NCBI GenBank assembly: GCA_963713955.1
Contig: OY970216.1
Span: 506,252 to 570,251, forward strand
DNA from: an uncultured bacterium
Lineage (GTDB): Bacteria > Patescibacteriota > Minisyncoccia > UBA6257 > GWB1-50-10
Reading direction: 5' to 3'
DNA length: 64,000 nucleotides
This document shows, piece after piece, positions 18,471 through 49,953 of this stretch. Both the position numbers and the translations under genes were made by a program. How positions within the stretch are numbered: position 1 is the stretch's first letter; each line of letters starts with the position of its first letter. Under the pieces are notes generated by a model. It was not told the origin of the DNA. It made no database searches and was given only the letters and a program-made list of their open reading frames with translations.

Positions 18471-19013
18471 ATGGCCTATGAAATAGAAACGAAGGTTCTG
18501 GACATTGACGCCGAGAAGGTAAAGGAAAGATTAGTCTCATTAGGCGCTCAGAAAACACAGGAAACGATTTTACGGGTAGACTGGTATCGACCGAGGGGAG
18601 TGAAAGAAGGGGAAGATTCATGGTTTTTGCGTATCCGATCCAACAGCGAGGGGAAACACGAGGTCACATGGAAAGCGAAATCAGATATACTGGGCACTAC
18701 CAGAAAAAACAAAGAGATCAATTTTATGATTTCGGAACCGGAAAAGTTGGTCGATCTTTTTGAGGAACTTGGTCTTGAAAGGTACGCGCATCAAGATAAA
18801 GAGCGAACATCGTTTATCCTGAAGAATTGGCTATCTGAGATAGACCGCTACCCTAAAATGCCGACGTACCTCGAAATTGAAGGAGGGAGTGAAGAGCATG
18901 TGAAGGAAGCAATAACATTACTCGGCTTAGAAAAGGACCGGACGTGGGCTGAGGGTGAGCGGATTCTCATTCAAGACGTCTATGGACTGAACTGGTACGA
19001 TATGAGGTTCTAA
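18471..19013 (+). CDS. CYTH-domain protein (triphosphate tunnel metalloenzyme / CyaB-like)
   Basis: Starts MAYEIETKVLDIDAEKVKERL..., the EXEXK beta-strand motif of CYTH. A paralog lies at 47562..48137. Confidence 0.6.
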   Translation: MAYEIETKVLDIDAEKVKERLVSLGAQKTQETILRVDWYRPRGVKEGEDSWFLRIRSNSEGKHEVTWKAKSDILGTTRKNKEINFMISEPEKLVDLFEELGLERYAHQDKERTSFILKNWLSEIDRYPKMPTYLEIEGGSEEHVKEAITLLGLEKDRTWAEGERILIQDVYGLNWYDMRF

Positions 19014-19071
19014 TTTCCACTACTACAAATCGTTTGAACGTCATCCAGTTCTGTACACCAAAGTTATATAA

Positions 19072-19530
19072 TTGACTTATATGTCCGAAGAAAAAAAGAG
19101 GGTGGGTGCAGGATTTGGCGTGATTCTGGAACGTGACGGGAAAATTCTCCTCGGGATGCGCCATCCTGATCCCGATAAAGCCGACTCGGCATTCCGGAGC
19201 GCCGGGGAGTGGTCATTGCCGGGAGGGAAACTTGAGTGGGGAGAAACTCTGGAGGAGGGCGCGATCCGCGAGGTCAAAGAAGAAACCGGAATCACCATCA
19301 TCAATCCTCAGGTGATATCGGTGCACAATTGCAAAAATGAATATGCTCATTTCATGACGGTAGGACTTCTCACCCACAAGTGGGAAGGTGAAGCGAATGT
19401 TATGGAACCGGATGAGATAATAAAGTGGCAGTGGTTCGATCTTAATGATCTGCCATATCCTCGCTATTTTCCCAGCTTTGAAGTCATTGAAAATTACTTG
19501 AAAGGCAAGTTTTACATAAAACGGCTTTAG
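19072..19530 (+). CDS. NUDIX hydrolase
   Basis: Nudix box GGKLEWGETLEEGAIREVKEETGI. Confidence 0.8.
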   Translation: MTYMSEEKKRVGAGFGVILERDGKILLGMRHPDPDKADSAFRSAGEWSLPGGKLEWGETLEEGAIREVKEETGITIINPQVISVHNCKNEYAHFMTVGLLTHKWEGEANVMEPDEIIKWQWFDLNDLPYPRYFPSFEVIENYLKGKFYIKRL

Positions 19531-19539
19531 GGAAAACAG

Positions 19540-20520
19540 ATGAAAACCGTCACTCTCCACAACAAAAAAGAATTTCTCCTCCGTCCAACCAAGCCCTTCC
19601 ATTTCGATTCTACCTTTTACAAACCAGGCCATTTTACAAGCAGCGACACGAAATGGGAGCCGGGGAGAAGATGGCAGACCATGTTGTGGCAAGGAGAAAG
19701 GCTTGGCTTGATTTACGAGGACGCTGGAACCAAATCAAAGCCCAAGGTCAGAGTCAAAGTGTTTTCCAAAAAGAAATTATCTCGGGAATTTATCGAGGGG
19801 CTTAAAAAAGAAATAATCTGGAGATTCAATCTGGATTTAGATTTAACCGGTTTCTACAAGGATGTTGGCAAAGATCCTATCCTGAAACCTGCCATCAAGA
19901 GATTCTACGGTCTTCGTCCGATGTCCTATTCCTCGCTTTACGAATATCTGATCATTGATATTGTGCTCCAAAATACCGTTGTCCGGCGAAGTATCAGCAT
20001 GCTCCAATCTCTTTTTGAAAACTATGGTGTCCTCCTTGAATATGATCATCAGAAATTCTGGGGCTACTGGGAACCGAAAGCCCTCGCGATGACGAAAGAG
20101 CAAGAACTGCGGGATCTGAAAGTGGGGTACCGGGCCAAGTCCTTTATCAGAGTTTCAAAGTCGTTCGCGAAGGGCGATATCGACGAGCTCGACTTGAGAA
20201 AAAAGAGCCCGGAAGGGCAGGAGAAAATCTTGCTCTCGCTCTACGGCATCGGGCCGGCGTCGGTGGGCTATCTCATGTTCGACTGCCTTCACCACTGGGA
20301 CTACCTGAAAAACATCTCGCCGTGGGAGCAGAAAATCTATACCCACATCTTTTTCAATAAAGACCACGAAAAGCACCTCGTACCGATCGAAAAGATGCTC
20401 AAAAGATTCGAGAGATGGGGCAAGTGGAAGGGGCTCGCCGTGAACTATGTTTGGGAGGAGATATGGTGGAAGCGGAGGAACGAGCACATCCCGTGGCTCG
20501 AGAAAGAAATAAGGCTATAA
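19540..20520 (+). CDS. HhH-GPD superfamily DNA glycosylase (AlkA-like 3-methyladenine glycosylase II)
   Basis: Helix-hairpin-helix LLSLYGIGPASVGYLMF followed by an Asp-containing loop. Size and N-terminal domain fit AlkA. Confidence 0.5.
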   Translation: MKTVTLHNKKEFLLRPTKPFHFDSTFYKPGHFTSSDTKWEPGRRWQTMLWQGERLGLIYEDAGTKSKPKVRVKVFSKKKLSREFIEGLKKEIIWRFNLDLDLTGFYKDVGKDPILKPAIKRFYGLRPMSYSSLYEYLIIDIVLQNTVVRRSISMLQSLFENYGVLLEYDHQKFWGYWEPKALAMTKEQELRDLKVGYRAKSFIRVSKSFAKGDIDELDLRKKSPEGQEKILLSLYGIGPASVGYLMFDCLHHWDYLKNISPWEQKIYTHIFFNKDHEKHLVPIEKMLKRFERWGKWKGLAVNYVWEEIWWKRRNEHIPWLEKEIRL

Positions 20521-20522
20521 CC

Positions 20523-21005
20523 ATGATGATCCCACAGGACGAGTACTATAAAAACATACCGAAGAAAAGAATGGGCGCCGGAGTTCTCATCGCCGACGGG
20601 AACGACAGATTTTTATTCGTAAAACTGGCCTACAAAAATAACTGGTCAATACCGGGTGGAGTAATCGAAACCAACGAATCACCGAGGACAGCCGCGATAA
20701 GAGAAACAAAAGAAGAAGTACATATTGATCTCCAAGAGTGCATTTTCCTATGCCTCGATTACAAATCGGGTACGAGCGAAAACGGGGAGAGTCTGCAATT
20801 TATATTCTCCGGTGGTATTTTGAATGATAAGACGAAGGCCGATATAAAAGTTGACGGGGAGGAGATAGTGGAATGCAAATTTATGAAACTGGAAAAGGCC
20901 CTACCACTCCTTAGCGAAGGATTGAGGAAACGGTTGCCGAAATGCTTCGAGTCACTGAAAAGCCATAAAGTGATTTATCTAGAGGACGGCGAAGCTGTTC
21001 AATAA
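20523..21005 (+). CDS. NUDIX hydrolase
   Basis: Nudix box GGVIETNESPRTAAIRETKEEVHI. The start is taken at the ATG immediately after the upstream stop. Confidence 0.75.
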   Translation: MMIPQDEYYKNIPKKRMGAGVLIADGNDRFLFVKLAYKNNWSIPGGVIETNESPRTAAIRETKEEVHIDLQECIFLCLDYKSGTSENGESLQFIFSGGILNDKTKADIKVDGEEIVECKFMKLEKALPLLSEGLRKRLPKCFESLKSHKVIYLEDGEAVQ

Positions 21006-41410: not shown

Positions 41411-42016
41411 ATGTTTGCGCTCATATCAAATCTGGTCATTGAGATAATCAAGTACTTAGGCTATCCCGGCATCTTCCTTTTGATGACCTTGGAGAGCGTG
41501 AATATTCCCATCCCCTCTGAAATCATCATGCCTTTTTCCGGATTCCTGGCCCTCCAAGGCAACTTGAATTTTTGGCTTGTCGCACTCATGGGAACCTTGG
41601 GAAATATGGCTGGTGCGTTCCTATCGTATTTCCTCGCCGAATGGATATTGGAGATCAGGGGGAAATACAAGATACTTCAGGTCATCCTTTCCCACCGGCA
41701 CCTTGAAAAAACCGACGCGTGGTTCAAAAAATACGGCTCATACTCCATATTCTTCGGAAGGATCATTCCGATGGTCCGAACGTTCATATCCCTCCCGGCC
41801 GGCATCGCGAAGATGAATGCAATTAAGTTTACGTACCTCACGTTTCTCGGCTCTTTCCTCTGGTCGGCGTTTTTGACCTACATTGGATTTTTCCTCGGAA
41901 ACAACTGGACGATAATCCAAGAATATTTCAAAGAACTGGATTACGTGATACTCGTCGTCATCGCCGCCGCCCTGCTCTACTGGCTTATCGCAAGGAGAAA
42001 GAGAAAACGAACTTAA
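41411..42016 (+). CDS. dedA: DedA/VTT-domain (SNARE-associated) membrane protein
   Basis: YLGYPGIFLLMTLESVNIPIPSEII..., FFGRIIPMVRTFISLPAGIAKMN, typical DedA motifs. Confidence 0.75.
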   Translation: MFALISNLVIEIIKYLGYPGIFLLMTLESVNIPIPSEIIMPFSGFLALQGNLNFWLVALMGTLGNMAGAFLSYFLAEWILEIRGKYKILQVILSHRHLEKTDAWFKKYGSYSIFFGRIIPMVRTFISLPAGIAKMNAIKFTYLTFLGSFLWSAFLTYIGFFLGNNWTIIQEYFKELDYVILVVIAAALLYWLIARRKRKRT

Positions 42017-42149
42017 TTTGTACGAACGCCACCATATTCCGAAGAAGGCTTTTTTAGTGAGGAGGATTTATTCGAAAGAAAAACTCGCCGATGAGGGATA
42101 TGGCGGCGGGAGAACCCCTTGCGTTTTTTCCCGAAGTATGCTATCATAA

Positions 42150-42258
42150 GTCGTGTGTGAGTGTTAGGCTTTCCCTGTTCTCAAGAGGCGACTCGCGAGG
42201 AAATCCAAGGAAAGCCCTCAATAGTTTCCAAGAGCCCCGCAAGGGGCTCTGGTTTTTT
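42150..42258 (+). ncRNA. Candidate small RNA. A 5' single-stranded GUGUGUGAGUG, a 53-nt hairpin (GGCUUUCC...GGAAAGCC) and an intrinsic terminator GAGCCCCGCAAGGGGCUC + UUUUUU
   Basis: Stand-alone hairpin + terminator architecture 134 nt after the dedA stop. No credible ORF. Its 5' segment is complementary to the loop of the secA-leader hairpin (42330-42338). Confidence 0.4.
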
Positions 42259-42310
42259 ATGGAAATGGCGTTATTCTTAATATGCAGCGGAAAAACCGGA
42301 GTCGGACTTT

Positions 42311-42376
42311 CTCTGCGGCCACGGTTGAGCACTCACACAACAAAAAACTAAGGAGGTCACCACCGCGGCCGCAGAG
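42311..42376 (+). promoter_or_regulatory. Strong 14-15-bp hairpin in the secA 5' region (CTCTGCGGCCACGGT ... ACCGCGGCCGCAGAG). Its 36-nt loop contains CACUCACACAAC and AAGGAGG
   Basis: Located 62 nt upstream of the secA ATG. The loop sequence is complementary to 42153-42163. Confidence 0.5.
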
Positions 42377-42438
42377 GCGGCCCGACCGGATATTGGAACA
42401 CCTCACGGCGTCCCGACATCCTAAGCGTTGACTAAAAA

Positions 42439-44946
42439 ATGGAAATCCTCACCAAGCTTTTCAAAGACAACAATCTCAAAAGATACGAGCGCACCGCCGA
42501 GAAAATCAATTCGCTTGAACCGGAAATTGAACGCCTGAACGCGGAAGAACTCAAGGAAGAAATGCTGAAGCTGAAAGAAGAGTTGAGAAACGGGAAAAAA
42601 CCGGATGACATCCTGCCGCGCTCTTTCGCCCTTACGAGGGAAGCGGCAAAAAGAACCCTGAAGCAGAGGCATTTCGACGTTCAGATGGTGGGCGGCATGG
42701 CTCTCCACGAGGGAAAAATCGCCGAAATGAGGACCGGCGAAGGCAAAACGCTTGCGGCGACGCTCCCCACGGCCCTCAACGCCGCGACGGGGAGGGGTGC
42801 CCACGTGATAACCGTGAACGATTACCTTGCCAAGAGAGACACGGTCTGGATGGGGCAGATATACTACGCGTTGGGCTTCACGATCGCGTGCTTAGTCCAC
42901 GACGCGGCCTACGTCTACGACCCGTCGTTCGTGGGAGAAGAAAACCTGGACAAGGAACGGGACGCCATCGGCGGCTTCAAGGTCGTCGAAAAGTTTCTCC
43001 GGCCCGTCTCCCGAAAAGAAGCTTACGCTTCGGACATCACCTACGGCACCAACCACGAATTCGGCTTTGACTACCTGCGGGACAATCTGGCCGTCCGACT
43101 CGAAGACAAGGTACAAAGGGATTTTCATTACGCGATCATAGACGAAGTGGACAGCATCTTGATAGACGAGGCGAGAACGCCTCTGATCATCGCCGGCCCC
43201 GACCAAGAGTCGAGCGAATACTACCGGGTTTTCGCCCGCATTGTCTCAAACCTCGAGGAAGAAACCGATTACACCGTCGACGAGAAATTGAGGGCCGTGT
43301 CGATAACCGAACCCGGCATAGAAAAGACGGAAAAACTGGCCAACGTCCAAAACATCTACGCGCCGGAGAATCTGCGTCTTGTCCATTTTCTCCAGGAAAG
43401 CCTCAAAGCCAAAGCGCTCTTCAAGCGGGACAAGGATTACATCGTCAAAAACGGGGAAGTCGTGATCGTCGACGAATTCACCGGCCGGATGCTCATGGGG
43501 AGGAGGTATTCCGGGGGGCTCCACCAAGCCATAGAGGCCAAAGAAGGAGTGAATGTGCGGCAAGAAGACCGAACATACGCCCAGATCACCATCCAGAACT
43601 ATTTCCGCCTTTATGAAAAAATAGCGGGCATGACCGGGACGGCCGAGACTTCCGCCGAAGAATTCAACAAAGTTTACAACCTGGACGTCGTGACGATCCC
43701 CACCAACAAAAAGATGATACGGGAAGATCTGCCTGATGCAATCTATAAAACAAAAAAAGCGAAATATGAAGCGATCGTCAGAGAGATAAAGGAACAAAAA
43801 GAAAAAGGCAGGCCGATTCTCGTCGGAACGACGTCAATAGCCAACAATGAGATCATTTCTTCTTATCTCGCGAAAGCCGGGATACCACACGAGGTCCTGA
43901 ACGCCAAAAACCACGAACGCGAGGGAATGATCATTGCGCAGGCGGGGCGCGCGGGCGCCGTGACCGTCGCGACCAACATGGCCGGCCGCGGCGTCGACAT
44001 CGTCCTCGGAGGCAATCCGCCCGACCCCGATGAAGCGGAAAGAATAAAAGCAGCCGGCGGGCTCCTCGTCGTCGGAACCGAACGGCACGAGGCGAGGAGG
44101 ATTGACAACCAACTTCGCGGGCGCGCCGGGAGGCAGGGAGATCCCGGCTCGACGGAATTTTTCCTCTCCCTCGAAGACGATCTCATGCGCATCTTCGGAG
44201 GCGACCGGATCAAGCACCTCATGGAAACTCTGAACTTCCCGGAAGACGTTCCCATCCAATCCAAAACGGTCATGAGGGCGATCAACCAAGCTCAGGTCAA
44301 AGTCGAGGGAGCAAACTTCGACATCCGGAAGCATCTCCTAGATTTCGACGATGTATTGAACAAACAGAGAGCGGCAATTTACAACAAAAGGACCAAAATA
44401 CTGGAAGCGGGGGACAAGAATGAAATATTGTCAATTGTGAGGGAAATGATCGGTAATTTTGTTTCCGAAAACGTGGCCGCTCTGAAAAACAAATTGGAAT
44501 TGAATCCGGAGGAAAAAGAACAAACCGAAAAACAGATAAGCGAGTTGGAGAACAAAGCGTCAAAAATCCCGGAAAGCATCGACCAACTCAAATCCACGGT
44601 GATAGCCCAGCAAATCGTGAGGATGATGGATGCGCTCTGGATCGATCACTTGGAAAACCTCGAAGGATTGAGGGAGTCGGTGAACATCCGCGCTTACGGA
44701 CAGCACGATCCGCTCATCGAGTACCGTCGGGAAGCCTACCTCCAGTTCCAAGAGTTCAACAAGGCTCTCGAATCATTGGTGTATGGCACGGTATTCCAGA
44801 TTTTCGACATGGACCTCGGCAAAATGTTCGTGCCCCAAAACGCCGCGCCGCGCGAGACTCCGCCGCCGGAATTCAAGAACATCGGCAGGAATGACCCCTG
44901 CTGGTGCGGGAGCGGTTTGAAATACAAAAAATGCCACGGAAAATAA
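42439..44946 (+). CDS. secA: Preprotein translocase ATPase SecA
   Basis: DEAD-like motor motifs (MRTGEGKTLAATLP, DEVDSILIDEARTPLIIAG), C-terminal zinc motif CWCGSGLKYKKCHG. Confidence 0.95.
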   Translation: MEILTKLFKDNNLKRYERTAEKINSLEPEIERLNAEELKEEMLKLKEELRNGKKPDDILPRSFALTREAAKRTLKQRHFDVQMVGGMALHEGKIAEMRTGEGKTLAATLPTALNAATGRGAHVITVNDYLAKRDTVWMGQIYYALGFTIACLVHDAAYVYDPSFVGEENLDKERDAIGGFKVVEKFLRPVSRKEAYASDITYGTNHEFGFDYLRDNLAVRLEDKVQRDFHYAIIDEVDSILIDEARTPLIIAGPDQESSEYYRVFARIVSNLEEETDYTVDEKLRAVSITEPGIEKTEKLANVQNIYAPENLRLVHFLQESLKAKALFKRDKDYIVKNGEVVIVDEFTGRMLMGRRYSGGLHQAIEAKEGVNVRQEDRTYAQITIQNYFRLYEKIAGMTGTAETSAEEFNKVYNLDVVTIPTNKKMIREDLPDAIYKTKKAKYEAIVREIKEQKEKGRPILVGTTSIANNEIISSYLAKAGIPHEVLNAKNHEREGMIIAQAGRAGAVTVATNMAGRGVDIVLGGNPPDPDEAERIKAAGGLLVVGTERHEARRIDNQLRGRAGRQGDPGSTEFFLSLEDDLMRIFGGDRIKHLMETLNFPEDVPIQSKTVMRAINQAQVKVEGANFDIRKHLLDFDDVLNKQRAAIYNKRTKILEAGDKNEILSIVREMIGNFVSENVAALKNKLELNPEEKEQTEKQISELENKASKIPESIDQLKSTVIAQQIVRMMDALWIDHLENLEGLRESVNIRAYGQHDPLIEYRREAYLQFQEFNKALESLVYGTVFQIFDMDLGKMFVPQNAAPRETPPPEFKNIGRNDPCWCGSGLKYKKCHGK

Positions 44947-45584
44947 GCGAACTATACGATAAATACAAAATACCGACGTCACTCCGGACGCACATGATAA
45001 GAGTCGCCGGCGTCGCTTCGATCATCTGCCGGAACTTCAAAGGACCCATCGAAACGGACGAGATCATATCAGCGTGCCTTTTGCACGACATGGGAAACAT
45101 CATCAAATTCAACTTGGACGCCCTTCCAGAACTTCTGGAACCAGAAGGGAAGGGTTACTGGTCCCTCATCCAGAAGGACTTTATAGCCCGGTACGGTAAC
45201 GACGAACACAAGGCGACTCTCGCGATCGCGAAGGAAGCGGAGATCTCCGACCGGGTGTACAATTTGATAAAATCTTTCGGGTTCGGAAAAGCGTGCGAAC
45301 GGGCCGAGGACGACGACTTCCCGAAGAAAATATGCAATTATTCCGACCAACGAGTCGGGCCGTTCGGCGTTTTATCACTCAAAGAAAGGATACGGGAAGG
45401 AAGCAACCGATTCATTGCGTCAGGCAGAAAGCCGCCCGAAGACGAAAGGTCGTTCGAAGAATCGGTATCCTGCTTGGGAAATCTCGAGAAACAGGTTTTT
45501 GACCGATGTTCCCTGAAACCCGAGGATATCACCGACTCATTGGTGGAAACCGAGACAAAAAACATCCAAGCATTCTGGATGTAA
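44931..45584 (+). CDS. HD-domain phosphohydrolase
   Basis: H...HD motif (THMIRVAGVAS...ACLLHDMGNI). Start taken at the in-frame ATG at 44931 (alternative 44904). Confidence 0.6.
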   Translation: MPRKISELYDKYKIPTSLRTHMIRVAGVASIICRNFKGPIETDEIISACLLHDMGNIIKFNLDALPELLEPEGKGYWSLIQKDFIARYGNDEHKATLAIAKEAEISDRVYNLIKSFGFGKACERAEDDDFPKKICNYSDQRVGPFGVLSLKERIREGSNRFIASGRKPPEDERSFEESVSCLGNLEKQVFDRCSLKPEDITDSLVETETKNIQAFWM

Positions 45585-45648
45585 AAACAATGACAAGAAT
45601 TCTGCCCCTGGTGGGGCAACTTGAATAAGCACAAAAAGCGGAGGTAAG

Positions 45649-46110
45649 ATGAAAAACGTGGACACAGACAAAAAATATCCAAGGGTCGGCGCGGGAGCGA
45701 TGATTTTGAAAGACGGGAAGGTGCTCCTCGGAAAAAGACACGACGACCCCGAAAAGGCATCGAGCGCTCTCCACGGGGAAGGTACGTGGACGATGCCCGG
45801 CGGGAAAATCGATTTTCAGGAAAAAATCGACGATGGCATCCTCCGCGAGGTGTTCGAAGAAACCGGTGTCAGGATAAAAAAAGAAGATTTGAAACTCTTA
45901 AGCGTCACGAACGACATCGTCAAAGACGCTCATTTCGTGACGATCGGGTTTCTCTGCGAGAAATTCGAAGGAGAACCCCGCGCGATGGAACCCGATGAAA
46001 TCGTCGAATGGCGATGGTTTCCGATAAACGGCCTTCCCGCGCCGATGTACCCCACGAGCAAAAAAATGATCGAACATTACCTTGCAAAGAAGATTTACAT
46101 AACATCATGA
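45649..46110 (+). CDS. NUDIX hydrolase
   Basis: Nudix box GGKIDFQEKIDDGILREVFEETGV. Confidence 0.8.
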   Translation: MKNVDTDKKYPRVGAGAMILKDGKVLLGKRHDDPEKASSALHGEGTWTMPGGKIDFQEKIDDGILREVFEETGVRIKKEDLKLLSVTNDIVKDAHFVTIGFLCEKFEGEPRAMEPDEIVEWRWFPINGLPAPMYPTSKKMIEHYLAKKIYITS

Positions 46111-46586
46111 GCCCTCCGCGCATGAAAAAACTGCTCACCCTTTGCATAATATACGAACACCCCCGGATACTCCTTGGCATGAAAAAACGGGGGTTCGGCA
46201 AGGGGAGGTGGAATGGCTTCGGCGGGAAGGTGGAAAAGGGAGAAACAATAGAAGAAGCGGCAAAACGAGAACTAACCGAGGAAGTTGGCGTTATGCCCCA
46301 TTCTCTCGAGAAGCGCGGCATCATCGAATTCGAATTCAAGGACAATCCCGAGATTCTAGAGATGCATATTTTCTGCGTAAACGGTTTCGCCGGGACGCCG
46401 AAAGAAAGCGACGAGATGAAACCCCAGTGGTTTGACGTAAGCGAGATTCCCTTCGATTCAATGTGGTCGGATGACAAATATTGGCTGCCATCGTTTCTGA
46501 ACGACAAAAAATTCAAAGGTAAATTTTTCTTCGACGTCTCCGAAAATGTCATCGACAAAGAATTTGACGAAGTCGAGAATTTATGA
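46107..46586 (+). CDS. NUDIX hydrolase, MTH1/NUDT1-like (8-oxo-dGTP diphosphatase-type signature)
   Basis: GFGKGRWNGFGGKVEKGETIEEAAKRELTEEVGV closely matches the NUDT1 signature. ATGA overlap with the upstream gene. Confidence 0.75.
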   Translation: MSPPRMKKLLTLCIIYEHPRILLGMKKRGFGKGRWNGFGGKVEKGETIEEAAKRELTEEVGVMPHSLEKRGIIEFEFKDNPEILEMHIFCVNGFAGTPKESDEMKPQWFDVSEIPFDSMWSDDKYWLPSFLNDKKFKGKFFFDVSENVIDKEFDEVENL

Positions 46587-47044
46587 AACCCAAGAGATTC
46601 AAACCCAAACGAGGACAAGTTGACTATCGCCACATCCACTGGGCGCCAGTCATAAACTGTGTATTGAAATGCGGCGACAAGATTCTCTTGGTCCACCGGA
46701 ACAAGAACATGAACTTGTACCCCGGATACTGGAGCGGCATCTCGGGATTTCTCGACGACGACAAAAGCCTCGAAGAGAAAGTCGCCGAGGAAGTAAAGGA
46801 GGAATTGGGCATCGACAAGAAAAAGATAGTGAAAATAAAACTGGGAGAAATATTCGACCAGGAAGACCCCGCAAACAAAAAGACCTGGATTGTCCATCCC
46901 GTATTTGTGGAAATCAAGCCGGGTGAGATAAAATTGAATTGGGAAGCCGAAGGTTATCGATGGATCAAGCCAAGAGAAGCACAAAAACTGAAACTGATAC
47001 CGAATTTCGACAAAGTTCTCGAAAAACTATCACAATGGCTGTGA
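46583..47044 (+). CDS. NUDIX hydrolase
   Basis: Nudix box SGFLDDDKSLEEKVAEEVKEELGI. Confidence 0.7.
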   Translation: MKPKRFKPKRGQVDYRHIHWAPVINCVLKCGDKILLVHRNKNMNLYPGYWSGISGFLDDDKSLEEKVAEEVKEELGIDKKKIVKIKLGEIFDQEDPANKKTWIVHPVFVEIKPGEIKLNWEAEGYRWIKPREAQKLKLIPNFDKVLEKLSQWL

Positions 47045-47580
47045 AAAAAAGAAAATCAAAGAAAAAGAAGCTGGTCGTCGTCGCCGTGAGCGGTGGCTTC
47101 GACCCGCTCCACATCGGTCATACCCGACTTTTCCGCCACGCGCGAACGTTAGGCGACAAGCTAGTCGTTATTCTCAACAATGACCACTGGCTCCGTAAGA
47201 AGAGAGGATTTGTGTTCATGTCGGAGCATGAAAGAAAGGAAGTCATTGAGGCGCTCCGCGATGTTGATCGTGTTATCCTCACGAAACACCCAAGGAACCC
47301 GAAAGGTCCCGAAGATATGAGCGTTAGTCGCGAACTTCGGAAACTCATGCCGGACATCTTCGTAAACGGCGGAGACCGGAACGAAAAAGACGCAGCAAAC
47401 CCCGCCTCATCGCTTTACCACGACGTCAATACCTGCAGGGCGCTCGGAATCAAAATGATATTCAATGTCGGCCACGGGGGCAAGATACAATCAAGCTCGT
47501 GGCTCCTCGCCGAATACGCGGATAACCTGCACCGCCAATCAAAGGCTGAACGGAGAAAAAAATGGAAGAAAAAGAAGTAA
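47035..47580 (+). CDS. Cytidylyltransferase-like nucleotidyltransferase (HxGH class. CTP:glycerol-3-P cytidylyltransferase / HldE domain II-like)
   Basis: VVAVSGGFDPLHIGHTRLFRHAR (HIGH motif), ...ILTKHP. Lys-rich N- and C-termini. Confidence 0.65.
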   Translation: MAVKKRKSKKKKLVVVAVSGGFDPLHIGHTRLFRHARTLGDKLVVILNNDHWLRKKRGFVFMSEHERKEVIEALRDVDRVILTKHPRNPKGPEDMSVSRELRKLMPDIFVNGGDRNEKDAANPASSLYHDVNTCRALGIKMIFNVGHGGKIQSSSWLLAEYADNLHRQSKAERRKKWKKKK

Positions 47581-48137
47581 AGTTCCTCAACATTGACAAG
47601 GAGGAGTTGGAGAAAAAGCTTGAGGAAATCGGCGCTCGAAAAGCAGGGGATTATTTTTACAAGAGGATAGTTTTCGATTACCCCGATTTCCGCTTGAACA
47701 AAAGCGGTGCATGGATCCGTCTCCGCGACGAGGGGGACAGAATAACGTTGTCGTTCAAGCAGAGACTCGGCATAAAATCGGATAAGGGCGACGACGAGGG
47801 GATGAAAGAGATCGAGGTCGTCGTCGACGACTTCGACAAAACCGCTACGCTTCTTTCCGAGCTTGGATTCATCGAAAAGCACTATGCCGAGAACAAGAGA
47901 ACCCGCTGGGAGAAGGACGGCGTGGAATTCGACATTGACACCTGGCCGGCTCTGGAACCCTACCTTGAAATAGAATCATCGACATGGGAAAAAGTGGAGG
48001 AAGCGATCAGTTGGTTGGGGTTGAATCCCGCGGACAAAAGAATATTCTCCGCGAACCAAATTTACAAAATGAAGGGTATTAACGTGATCGACTATGTCCA
48101 CTTCGGCTTCGATAAACTTGTAAAAAGAGAGAAATGA
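47562..48137 (+). CDS. CYTH-domain protein (paralog of 18471..19013)
   Basis: MEEKEVKFLNIDKEELEKKLEEIGAR... has the same architecture and motifs as the first CYTH protein. Confidence 0.6.
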   Translation: MEEKEVKFLNIDKEELEKKLEEIGARKAGDYFYKRIVFDYPDFRLNKSGAWIRLRDEGDRITLSFKQRLGIKSDKGDDEGMKEIEVVVDDFDKTATLLSELGFIEKHYAENKRTRWEKDGVEFDIDTWPALEPYLEIESSTWEKVEEAISWLGLNPADKRIFSANQIYKMKGINVIDYVHFGFDKLVKREK

Positions 48138-48385
48138 TTGGAGAAGCAAAAAATTTGAAAACCGGGAGATACAAACACTACAAAGGCGACATCGTTGAGG
48201 TCACCGGAATCTCACTTCACAGTGAAACATTGGAAGAATTCGTGACTTACAAACACATCACCGGCAAACGAGCAGGCGAACCGCACTTCTGGGTCCGCCC
48301 GCTCAAAATGTTCCTGGAAAGCGTAAAAATCAACGGAGAAACAATTCCGCGCTTCAAATACCTCGGCAAACTCATCAGCAAATAG
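48134..48385 (+). CDS. DUF1653-family small protein
   Basis: GRYKHYKGDIVEVTGISLHSETLEEFVTYKHITGKRAGEPHFWVRPLKMF matches the DUF1653 (YKHYKG..Y...HSET.E..V.Y) pattern. Confidence 0.55.
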   Translation: MIGEAKNLKTGRYKHYKGDIVEVTGISLHSETLEEFVTYKHITGKRAGEPHFWVRPLKMFLESVKINGETIPRFKYLGKLISK

Positions 48386-48391
48386 CGCTGA

Positions 48392-48423
48392 GGAGGGTGG
48401 TCTAACGCATTAGACCACCCTCC
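48392..48423. terminator. Perfect palindrome GGAGGGTGGTCTAAcgcaTTAGACCACCCTCC between convergent genes (family member 2)
   Basis: 14-bp arms with a 4-nt loop. Same GGGTGGTCTAA arm as 9093-9118. Confidence 0.6.
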
Positions 48424-48535
48424 CATAAATCCCGTTAGAAGCTCACAGGGGGTATTCAACTCCGTGTTCACTATGGAGACTAAGCATTCATCCCCGCGGC
48501 TTGCCGCGGGGTTTTCTGCTTCTAACGGGATAAAA

Positions 48536-48910
48536 CTACCCATTTAAGAAATCCCACCGATGACTTCCATAACCGGGAAGTCTTCTTTTTTGGGGCGCTC
48601 TATCGGGATAATGTTGAGGATAATGCTGGACAGGAACGTTGCTTTTCTTCAGGCCGCGCTTGACGAAAACAACAGTCATTTTAGAGACGTCGGCTTTTTT
48701 GCTTGTTTCTCTCAAACTTTCCCCTTTCCTCAGGAAGTAAATGGTGGCCAATCTTTTTTCAAGAAGATTAATCTCGTTTTCCGTTAAAAATCTCCGAAGC
48801 AAATCAGCCGGTTCATCATACTCATTGATTTTCTTAACTTCACGCCGAAAAACATCCCAAATGTCTTCTTTCAGTTTTTGATCCAGATGTTTTTTACTGC
48901 TTCTCGGCAT
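48536..48910 (-). CDS. TrpR/YerC-family helix-turn-helix DNA-binding protein
   Basis: LLRRFLTENEINLLEKRLATIYFLRKGESLRETSKKADVSKMTVVFVKRGLK resembles YerC/YecD (Trp-repressor-like). Start chosen at Met-36 of the longest ORF so that the upstream palindrome is non-coding. Confidence 0.45.
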   Translation of the reverse strand: MPRSSKKHLDQKLKEDIWDVFRREVKKINEYDEPADLLRRFLTENEINLLEKRLATIYFLRKGESLRETSKKADVSKMTVVFVKRGLKKSNVPVQHYPQHYPDRAPQKRRLPGYGSHRWDFLNG

Positions 48911-48914
48911 ATAC

Positions 48915-48943
48915 AAGGGTGGTCTAACACATTGTACCACCTT
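48915..48943. repeat. Imperfect member of the GGGTGGTCTAAC palindrome family (AAGGGTGGTCTAACACATTGTACCACCTT). It lies 5 nt upstream of the 48910 start codon, in a divergent promoter region
   Basis: Same left arm as the other two copies. The right arm is degenerate. Confidence 0.5.
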
Positions 48944-48984
48944 TGATAACCTCCCGAAAGCGACATATAATTTATGATACTTGA

Positions 48985-49953
48985 ATGAAAAAATCACTGG
49001 TAATCGCTCTGCCATTAATCTTTATTTTGGGGATAAGTTATTACTTCTTTCTTGCCGCACCGCAAGCGAACGAGGCGCCTGAAAGATTCGTCGTTTCGCT
49101 GGGAGAGAGTAAATCCCAAGCGGTACGGGATTTGTCCAATCAAGGATTCGTGAAAAGTGAGATGGGGATCGGCCTGGCATTGCTTCTCGAGGGAAACTCG
49201 GCCATAAATCCCGGCGGATACAAGATTTCGAAGAGTACGAACGCTTTCCAAGTAGCCTCGGTCTTGAGCCAGCCGCCGTACATGGAATGGGTGGCAGTCC
49301 CGGAAGGATTAAGAAAGGAAGAGATCGCTGATCTTTTGGAGAATTCGCTCGGCTGGAATGATGACACCAAAAACCAGTTCCTGAATGCCTACCAAACGCT
49401 CGGCGGAAAGGACTACCAAGAGGGAGTCTACTTCCCGAGCACTTATCTTTTACCGATTGATGAAAACGGAGAGCAAATCGCCGAGCGTTTCATAACTCAG
49501 TTCAACGAAAGCTTCGCGCCGTTCGCCTCGGAAGCGGCTGCTCAAAACGTAAAATGGACCACGGCCCTCAAGATTGCTTCCATAATACAAAGGGAAGCGG
49601 CTGGAACAAGCGATATGGCGCTCATATCCGGAATAATCTGGAACCGCTTACTCAAGAATATGCCGCTCGACATAGACGCGACAGTCGAATACGCGAGAGG
49701 GAACGCCGGGAACGGCTACTGGGCGCCGCTTTCTGTTTCAGATCTCAAAATCGACTCGCCGTATAACACGTACCTCCACGCCGGACTTCCGCCGACGCCG
49801 ATCGCAAATCCGGGGATCGCCGCCATAAGCGCGGCACTCCATCCCGCGACGACCCCCTGCCTCTACTACCTCCACGATCCAAGCAAGATCATTCACTGCG
49901 CCAACACGTACGCGGAGCAGGAATTGAACGTCCAAAAATACCTGAAGCAATGA
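48985..49953 (+). CDS. mltG: Endolytic murein transglycosylase MltG (YceG family)
   Basis: N-terminal TM, catalytic region ...IASIIQREAAGTSDMALISGIIWNRL...SPYNTYLHAGLPPTPIANPG. Confidence 0.85.
   Translation: MKKSLVIALPLIFILGISYYFFLAAPQANEAPERFVVSLGESKSQAVRDLSNQGFVKSEMGIGLALLLEGNSAINPGGYKISKSTNAFQVASVLSQPPYMEWVAVPEGLRKEEIADLLENSLGWNDDTKNQFLNAYQTLGGKDYQEGVYFPSTYLLPIDENGEQIAERFITQFNESFAPFASEAAAQNVKWTTALKIASIIQREAAGTSDMALISGIIWNRLLKNMPLDIDATVEYARGNAGNGYWAPLSVSDLKIDSPYNTYLHAGLPPTPIANPGIAAISAALHPATTPCLYYLHDPSKIIHCANTYAEQELNVQKYLKQ

Follow-up and report, generated by a model that had tools for sequence, protein, structure and literature searches.

What holds together a row of seven small genes behind secA, several of which look like enzymes acting on nucleotides? 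The question is raised by a stretch of 64,000 nucleotides (nt) of contig OY970216.1 (assembly GCA_963713955.1), from an uncultured bacterium of the Patescibacteria; this whole stretch is referred to below as the window. Comparison across species suggests an answer in two parts. The locus is best described as a conserved secA–MTH1 backbone, MTH1 being the type of the middle one of three NUDIX genes, to which each lineage adds cassettes of its own, with a bias towards enzymes that sanitise nucleotides. A search of the literature on MTH1/NUDT1, Nudix, DUF1653 and house-cleaning neighbourhoods in the Candidate Phyla Radiation (CPR) found no published work on this locus. Its genes are the following, with lengths in amino acids (aa) and the names used hereafter.

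secA, 42439-44946, + strand: open reading frame (ORF) of 835 aa, conserved anchor of the locus and first gene of what is probably a transcription unit of eight genes
HD gene, 44931-45584, + strand: 217 aa; Pfam HD, 24.5 bits, N-terminal part only
NUD1, 45649-46110, + strand: NUDIX protein of 153 aa; Pfam NUDIX, 79.4 bits
MTH1/NUDT1-type NUDIX gene, 46122-46586, + strand: 154 aa; Pfam NUDIX, 61.0 bits; alternative start at 46107
NUD3, 46583-47044, + strand: NUDIX protein of 153 aa; Pfam NUDIX, 50.6 bits
CTPt, 47035-47580, + strand: HxGH nucleotidyltransferase of 181 aa; Pfam CTP_transf_like, 49.1 bits
CYTH gene, 47562-48137, + strand: triphosphate-tunnel metalloenzyme of 191 aa; Pfam CYTH, 54.4 bits
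DUF1653 gene, 48134-48385, + strand: 83 aa; Pfam DUF1653, 76.3 bits

The seven tightly packed, co-directional genes that a first-pass annotation had placed behind secA are all present on the + strand, and its domain assignments hold: with Pfam cut-offs applied to all seven ORFs (22 bits for HD, PF01966), each lies above its own.

The secA–MTH1 backbone across species

Synteny was assessed in loci anchored on the MTH1-type gene, one each from 80 different species, and linkage to secA was scored in the 65 of these with at least 3 kb of upstream sequence. An upstream secA on the same strand, recognised by the SecA Pfam domains of the orthologs, is found in 49 of the 65. It directly adjoins the MTH1-type gene in 15 of the 49, and 0.3-7.4 kb of other genes intervene in the rest. 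In the closest relatives (L007 and L008) the order is secA, aminotransferase, MTH1, CYTH, DUF1653, YceG, RsmI and Bac_transf, while a third locus (L010) reads secA, glyoxalase, deoxyribosyltransferase, lipase, DUF1653, MazG-like, double NUDIX, CTPt, NUDIX and MTH1.

What lies between the two conserved genes can be described by a Pfam census of 101 ORFs. It counted NUDIX 16 times, ASCH 6 times, and DUF3850, the ITPase/XTPase-like NTPase_I-T and glyoxalase 4 times each, followed by GNAT, CTP_transf_like and HD (3 each, two of the HD proteins being HD_3/YfbR-like) and Nuc_deoxyrib_tr (2). ASCH and DUF3850 together make up 10 of the 101 (loci L007-L086), and MazG and PRA-PH-like proteins are also present around these loci. 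The ITPase-like, YfbR-like HD, MazG-like, deoxyribosyltransferase and ASCH families of the interval all back a role in nucleotide house-cleaning. The NUDIX share amounts to 11 of 116 ORFs (9.5%) in the secA–MTH1 interval versus 7 of 755 (0.9%) in the remainder of these loci (odds ratio 11, Fisher p = 2e-6), and to 3.8% of the ORFs in the 3 kb downstream. The concentration of NUDIX genes that had seemed striking in the window alone is, thus, a clustering above chance in the 80 loci.

The conserved enzyme itself is closely related to a well-known eukaryotic one. In a sequence search of the PDB, the MTH1-type protein matches mammalian MTH1 (dog and human) with E = 2e-54 over residues 7-158, and it is identical to dog MTH1 at 82 of 152 residues (54%) over the full length, which bears out the eukaryotic-type NUDT1/MTH1 signature read earlier in the middle NUDIX gene. 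Its NUDIX box, GKVEKGETIEEAAKRELTEEVG, fits the canonical GX5EX7REUXEEXGU. Asn33, Phe72, Trp117, Asp119 and Asp120 of MTH1 serve the recognition of oxidised purines (PMC11532495); across 26 orthologs, their counterparts N31, F70, W115, D117 and D118 either do not vary or are conserved to 90% or more. The protein is, on these grounds, predicted to be an 8-oxo-dGTP/2-OH-dATP diphosphatase. Assignment to the E. coli MutT-type equivalog was rejected, the scores being 45.7 bits for TIGR00586 (cut-off 97.9) and 47.4 bits for NF008044 (cut-off 148).

The MTH1-type family is neither eukaryote-specific nor new, since it is common in Patescibacteria and partly named 8-oxo-dGTP diphosphatase already: there are 5438 relatives in the database, part of which carry that annotation, and the family is present in at least 454 species-level Patescibacteria genomes. 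All close homologs come from Patescibacteria or Paceibacterota metagenome-assembled genomes (MAGs). The Patescibacteria-type gene also stands on contigs whose titles name MAGs of Spirochaetia, Alpha- or Gammaproteobacteria or Woesearchaeota (L015, L039, L040, L044, L066, L067, L017 and L081), three of which (L015, L040 and L067) carry secA upstream as well; this suggests mis-binning or mislabelling.

Escherichia coli K-12 offers a parallel, with the gene order secM-secA-mutT. In both organisms a NUDIX enzyme predicted to remove 8-oxo-dGTP is encoded 3' of secA on the same strand. They differ in that the enzyme of the window is of the MTH1/NUDT1 type and not of the MutT type, E. coli MutT being matched with E = 6.5e-07 only, and in that cassettes stand between secA and the MTH1-type gene, with more cassettes after it. 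Compared with mammalian MTH1, whose NUDIX box, base-recognition residues and full length it shares as described above, the window protein is bacterial, operon-embedded and widespread in Patescibacteria, its activity being predicted from homology.

The proteins of the variable cassettes

NUD1 resembles AtNUDX1, NUDT15 and a Burkholderia NUDIX protein (PDB matches 4dyw at 6.9e-22, AtNUDX1 at about 2e-18 and NUDT15 at 3.7e-09) and has a canonical NUDIX box. It was rejected as a MutT equivalog, with 31.9 bits for TIGR00586 and 42.5 bits for NF008044 (cut-offs 97.9 and 148). NUD3 is more unusual. Its box, GFLDDDKSLEEKVAEEVKEELG, is a charge-swapped form, GX5[K/R]X7[E/D]EUXEEXG, and the same holds for the seven orthologs seen, in which Lys or Arg (His in one) replaces the first Glu and Glu or Asp (Ala in one) replaces the Arg, while the metal-binding EUXEE stretch is intact. 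The canonical Glu and Arg, thus, appear to have exchanged charge in this subfamily. Its box can be written GFLDDx[K/R]...[E/D]EUXEEXG, and orthologs are found in loci L035, L041, L042, L069, L070 and L073.

To our knowledge, DUF1653 (PF07866) is a family with a solved structure and no known function. An AlphaFold2 (AF2) model of the window protein, with a predicted local distance difference test score (pLDDT) of 92, superimposes on PDB 3be3 with a template modelling (TM) score of 0.80 (E = 7e-6); the protein is a small beta-barrel with, beyond 3be3, a weak likeness to SH3/Tudor-like barrels. Of the 80 MTH1-anchored loci, 15 contain the gene; in 13 of these, no more than 2 kb separates it from the MTH1-type gene, and the two are often immediate neighbours. 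Among 17 longer proteins scanned from the best 150 matches of an exhaustive search, four join DUF1653 to NUDIX, either domain coming first, and other partners include a P-loop NMP-kinase-like domain, a MazG-like/dATP-dGTP pyrophosphohydrolase domain (a weak match), an IMPDH/GMP-reductase fragment and a histidine phosphatase. One fusion, P0363, joins an ortholog of NUD3, charge-swapped box included, to an ortholog of the window DUF1653 (59% identity), and it adjoins an ortholog of NUD1 (locus L175). Rosetta-stone evidence of this kind speaks for a cooperation of NUD1, NUD3 and DUF1653 at least, and a partnership between NUD3 and DUF1653 is probable. A tblastn search against phages located DUF1653 among small hypothetical genes of SPbeta-like, PM1 and Vibrio phages; in Bacillus phage phi3Ts (L176) and Vibrio phage Va2 (L177) it lies 1.5-3 kb from NrdI/NrdE or dUTPase genes, a proximity that is suggestive only.

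The CYTH protein contains the motifs E3xE5xK7, W51-I-R-L-R and E136xE138 (L-E-I-E), and a paralog elsewhere in the window contains EIETK, FLRIR and EIE. Class IV (CyaB) adenylate cyclases are recognised by an HF motif four residues before ExExK, by a small residue in place of the first Arg of xRxR and by Ala where ExE has its second Glu (Vogt et al. 2021, PMC8233210). A cyclase was rejected for both paralogs: ExExK begins with residue 3 of one protein and with residue 4 of the other, which leaves no room for HF, and both retain the xRxR Arg and the second Glu of ExE. The CyaB model points the same way, TIGR00318 scoring 51.8 bits for the CYTH protein against a cut-off of 57.95. The best PDB sequence match is SaTTM (Saci_0718), an archaeal triphosphate-tunnel metalloenzyme, which has ExExK, xRxR and ExE in common with the CYTH protein; at the position that marks thiamine triphosphatases (ThTPases), the two paralogs have an aromatic residue (Trp in one, Phe in the other), whereas SaTTM has Ala. 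Both proteins are predicted to be triphosphatases with a ThTPase-like aromatic residue. The annotation 'adenylate cyclase' should be avoided for the CYTH genes of this window and, by extension, for their orthologs.

The HD protein belongs to an uncharacterised, Patescibacteria-wide subfamily of about 215 aa. Its H...HD...D metal-binding motif (H21, H52-D53 and D139) is invariant in 43 sequences. A PDB sequence search with the protein gave no match, and its AF2 model (pLDDT 94) reaches TM scores of only 0.39-0.44 with known HD structures in Foldseek (PgpH, YqeK-like, HDOD and YfbR). To judge from its motif, it is a phosphohydrolase of the HD superfamily to which no specific activity can be assigned. 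The start at 44931 taken by the first-pass annotation is backed by 562 homologs (42-60% identical), which align from query residue 1; the public gene call starts at 44994, giving 196 aa, and is truncated, dropping the first conserved, metal-binding histidine. In one genome (L173:1448-5648) the family stands directly after ileS, the isoleucyl-tRNA synthetase gene, and in several proteins (P0284, P0314 and P0325) it is fused to tRNA-synthetase Anticodon_1 and DUF5915 segments, which are either real fusions or gene-call artefacts.

CTPt passes two superfamily models, TIGR00125 and PF01467, at 49.1 bits each (cut-offs 27.7 and 21). The RfaE domain II equivalog (heptose-1-P adenylyltransferase) was rejected, as TIGR02199 gives 62.2 bits against a cut-off of 181.5. 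Homologs are 65-74% identical across Patescibacteria, and in four long contigs they have a flippase gene on one side and epimerase, Bac_transf and GT2 genes on the other. In 80 metagenome loci with 106 immediate neighbours, those met most often are a PMM-like HAD protein, GDP-mannose dehydratase/epimerase, the mannoside phosphorylase GH130 and mannose-6-phosphate isomerase (MPI). A recurrent operon (L097:7965-12698, also in L098, L125 and L152) consists of CTPt, PMM-like HAD, MPI (a cupin) and one or two GH130 genes, which suggests a route from mannosides to NDP-mannose that uses this nucleotidyltransferase. As the family sits in glycan and mannose operons, CTPt is most likely a sugar-1-phosphate (or polyol-phosphate) nucleotidyltransferase, by prediction. 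In the window, it lies 4 kb upstream of Bac_transf and GT4 genes, a location that looks secondary; it is, probably, a passenger that belongs to sugar metabolism and not an enzyme of the nucleotide pool. The first-pass label of a HIGH-motif cytidylyltransferase in a nucleotide cluster is right as to the domain, whereas the implied role in nucleotide metabolism is made improbable by the family's usual operons.

Two known systems are helpful for comparison. The best NCBIfam and PDB matches of CTPt are domain II of RfaE/HldE and the glycerol-3-phosphate cytidylyltransferase TagD, with which it shares the HxGH fold and the occurrence in glycan or sugar-phosphate contexts, but it stands for a family of its own, highly conserved in Patescibacteria and marked by the C-terminal motifs NGGDRN and GGKxQSSSWL. 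The label 'heptose adenylyltransferase' is unsupported for this family, and a role in mannose or nucleotide-sugar metabolism is more likely. NadM-Nudix and other pairings of a nucleotidyltransferase with NUDIX find a counterpart in the translational coupling of this HxGH nucleotidyltransferase to a NUDIX gene; here, however, the two are separate proteins, and models of NMN adenylyltransferase are matched weakly (E 0.004-0.01). One homolog (L047:4625-5674) carries a weak C-terminal match to a DisA-type DAC domain (22.1 bits, cut-off 27).

Gene boundaries, the transcription unit and a second cluster

Most of the overlapping junctions described by the first-pass annotation are confirmed. The HD gene starts at ATG 44931 within the end of secA, overlapping its stop codon (44944-44946) by 16 nt; the MTH1-type gene and NUD3 meet in an ATGA at 46583-46586; NUD3 and CTPt overlap by 10 nt (ATGGCTGTGA, 47035-47044); and the CYTH and DUF1653 genes meet in an ATGA at 48134-48137. 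CTPt and the CYTH gene share 19 nt. The exception is the ATGA at 46107-46110, which can be read in the sequence at the end of NUD1: ATG 46107 was rejected as the start of the MTH1-type gene, because the ortholog consensus begins MKKLL and the conserved start is accordingly ATG 46122, 11 nt past the NUD1 stop. The region's longest ORF, a TTG-initiated one of 354 aa (45920-46984, - strand), was rejected as a shadow ORF antisense to the three NUDIX genes, because all three sense genes match Pfam strongly; the coding strand beneath it is purine-rich, with an AT skew of about +0.25.

Two structured elements bracket the genes.

Terminator-like hairpin 5' of secA, 42231-42250, + strand: 8-bp stem with 6 G-C pairs, then GGTTTTTTAT
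Structured spacer after DUF1653, 48392-48531, no strand: between the convergent DUF1653 and Trp-repressor-like genes

The upstream hairpin is the probable end of the preceding DedA-like gene and, as such, the upstream boundary of the unit. The 150-nt spacer (48386-48535) folds with -79.2 kcal/mol (z = -9.0) into a 14-bp hairpin (48392-48423) and a multi-branch domain closed by a 14-bp stem, inside which a G-C hairpin with a T-run is found at 48492-48511. No Rfam or tRNA match was obtained in 41900-49100, the spacer included, and no repeat of its structure was seen elsewhere in the window. It is a probable bidirectional terminator and downstream boundary, although it might also be a structured RNA. 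Since the two elements bracket the genes and no strong + strand terminator was seen between them, a single eight-gene transcription unit from secA to DUF1653 is plausible. Farther downstream in the window, Bac_transf and GT4 genes follow from 51692.

The window contains a second, smaller cluster of related genes.

CYTH paralog, 18471-19013, + strand: Pfam CYTH, 36.4 bits
NUDIX paralog of NUD1, 19081-19530, + strand: Pfam NUDIX, 83.7 bits; 47% identical to NUD1
Ogg-type HhH-GPD DNA glycosylase, 19540-20520, + strand: 326 aa; Pfam HhH-GPD, 21 bits, below cut-off
Fifth NUDIX gene, 20523-21005, + strand: Pfam NUDIX, 63.0 bits

These rows bear out two counts given earlier for the window, namely five NUDIX genes (starting at 45649, 46122, 46583, 19081 and 20523) and two CYTH genes, the second at 18471-19013. 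The glycosylase matches 4ejy (2.5e-16) and the 8-oxoguanine DNA glycosylase 3f10 (3.4e-05) in the PDB. With an Ogg-type glycosylase flanked by two NUDIX genes, the cluster at 18471-21005 resembles a GO-system-like grouping for oxidised guanine.

Nucleotide house-cleaning and its alternatives

The explanation we favour, as a reasonably probable one, is that of a secA-led operon tail with a conserved secA–MTH1 core and variable cassettes that mostly serve house-cleaning. The core MTH1-type enzyme would hydrolyse oxidised purine (deoxy)nucleoside triphosphates (8-oxo-dGTP as well as 2-OH-dATP) to the monophosphate and pyrophosphate, thereby keeping oxidised nucleotides out of DNA and RNA, and the secA–MTH1 pair would be the CPR counterpart of the E. 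coli secA–mutT pair, built with a different NUDIX subfamily. Around this core, the lineages would have gathered different small genes, chiefly for nucleotide house-cleaning hydrolases; those of the window would be the HD phosphohydrolase, the NUDX1/NUDT15-like NUD1, the charge-swapped NUD3 paired with the DUF1653 beta-barrel, and the CYTH triphosphatase. CTPt, displaced from its usual mannose/glycan operon, would either ride along or form a synthesis-and-hydrolysis pair with the overlapping NUD3. The enzymes would work independently on soluble substrates, and co-transcription with an essential gene would make their expression constitutive.

Several points weigh against this explanation. Conservation does not extend to the seven genes as a unit and is limited to secA with the MTH1-type NUDIX gene after it; the HD type of the window occurs in none of the 80 MTH1-anchored loci, and its homologs are found in varied, unrelated housekeeping contexts, once more downstream of secA. 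The secA–MTH1 interval also holds non-nucleotide genes (glyoxalase, GNAT and aminotransferase), DUF1653 is also fused to GNAT, GrpE and DUF456, and neither NUD1 nor NUD3 scores above the cut-off of any NCBIfam equivalog model. All the substrates named are extrapolated from homologs, the parallel with secA–mutT could be a coincidence, other phyla lying outside the survey, and in tiny genomes dense with genes, small genes come to lie close together even where no function connects them. The idea of the seven genes as a module is, accordingly, abandoned on the synteny of the relatives. The house-cleaning battery of the first-pass annotation survives in part: NUDIX and other sanitising families are enriched around a conserved secA–MTH1 pair, whereas the set of seven is not conserved and CTPt is likely a sugar enzyme.

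One alternative, which we regard as unlikely, is that unrelated small housekeeping genes have been packed into an insertion-tolerant zone behind secA, the nucleotide theme reflecting how common NUDIX and HD proteins are. Such packing would suit an interval whose content varies greatly by species and includes toxin-antitoxin-like genes besides the glyoxalase, GNAT and aminotransferase genes, as well as the unrelated contexts of the HD homologs and the sugar operons in which the transferase is normally found. It does not sit well with the 11-fold enrichment of NUDIX over the rest of the same loci or with the recurrence of several independent house-cleaning families in the interval, and the DUF1653-NUDIX fusions together with the L175 cluster (NUD1 beside NUD3::DUF1653) indicate a real linkage for at least three of the genes. 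Chance packing may, then, account for the HD and CTPt genes; for the NUDIX and DUF1653 genes it is contradicted by the enrichment and the fusions. Less probable again is a nucleotide-sugar homeostasis in which CTPt makes an NDP-sugar for the downstream envelope glycan genes (Bac_transf and GT4, from 51692) and the adjacent NUDIX enzymes hydrolyse NDP-sugars. The CTPt family does have genes for flippase, Bac_transf, epimerase and glycosyltransferases as its neighbours, or else belongs to PMM-MPI-GH130 operons, NUD3 and CTPt do overlap by 10 nt, and NUDIX-transferase adjacency recurs in L009, L010 and L042; yet NUDIX is outside the 25 most frequent neighbours of CTPt in the 80 metagenome loci, the conserved gene is of the MTH1 type with its residues for oxidised purines, and NUD3 is linked to DUF1653 and NUD1, not to the transferase. 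A nucleotide-sugar role may apply to CTPt and perhaps NUD3, but not to the conserved core.

Two further explanations appear very improbable. In the second-messenger module that had also been proposed for these genes, the CYTH protein (as a class IV cyclase) or CTPt would make a signalling nucleotide, to be degraded by the HD and NUDIX proteins. The closeness of the CYTH score to the cyaB cut-off, the DAC-like domain fused to CTPt in L047 (weak, and below cut-off) and the nearest, albeit weak, structural neighbours of the HD protein, which are the c-di-AMP phosphodiesterase PgpH and the Ap4A hydrolase YqeK, are compatible with this. Against it, both CYTH proteins are without HF, and neither the gate-keeper Arg nor the second Glu of ExE has been lost, CTPt is RfaE-II-like and belongs to sugar operons, the HD matches remain at TM 0.39-0.44, no receptor or effector gene is present at the locus, and the set is not conserved together; the proposal is, thus, argued against by the CYTH motifs, the sugar context of CTPt and the unconserved set alike. 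Equally remote is an anti-phage defence acting through nucleotide depletion or signal degradation, with NUDIX, HD and CYTH effectors. PADLOC does match the NUDIX proteins to a generic candidate model (PDC-S07, E 1e-13 to 3e-8), and the HD protein has a very weak dGTPase match (E 0.004), but the PADLOC matches are at the domain level only, CTPt, CYTH and DUF1653 have none, and the site behind secA is, in many species, a conserved housekeeping position and not a variable island with the marks of mobile elements. A known anti-phage system was rejected, no specific PADLOC model being matched by several components.

House-cleaning around a secA–MTH1 core, thus, remains the explanation to be preferred. 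A bolder extension of it, which we put forward tentatively though as a serious possibility, would make DUF1653 a dedicated accessory domain (for substrate binding, regulation or targeting) of house-cleaning enzymes that forms a two-component enzyme with NUD3, and would make the secA–MTH1 zone a conserved Patescibacteria 'nucleotide sanitation island', possibly sharing ancestry with the proteobacterial secA–mutT.

The components of the locus are enzymes of known kinds, and the biology is largely ordinary. What is gained is the conserved secA–MTH1 linkage in Patescibacteria, the picture of a cassette zone, three annotation corrections and the lead on DUF1653, a family that acquires a testable functional context through a proposed partnership with NUDIX or MazG-type enzymes. 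As the bacterial proteins are so similar to human MTH1, they also provide simple models of a medically interesting enzyme. Patescibacteria have tiny genomes and are generally held to depend on scavenged nucleotides. If the explanation favoured here is true, a constitutive sanitising set tied to an essential gene would help to explain how their DNA is replicated accurately with few repair genes.

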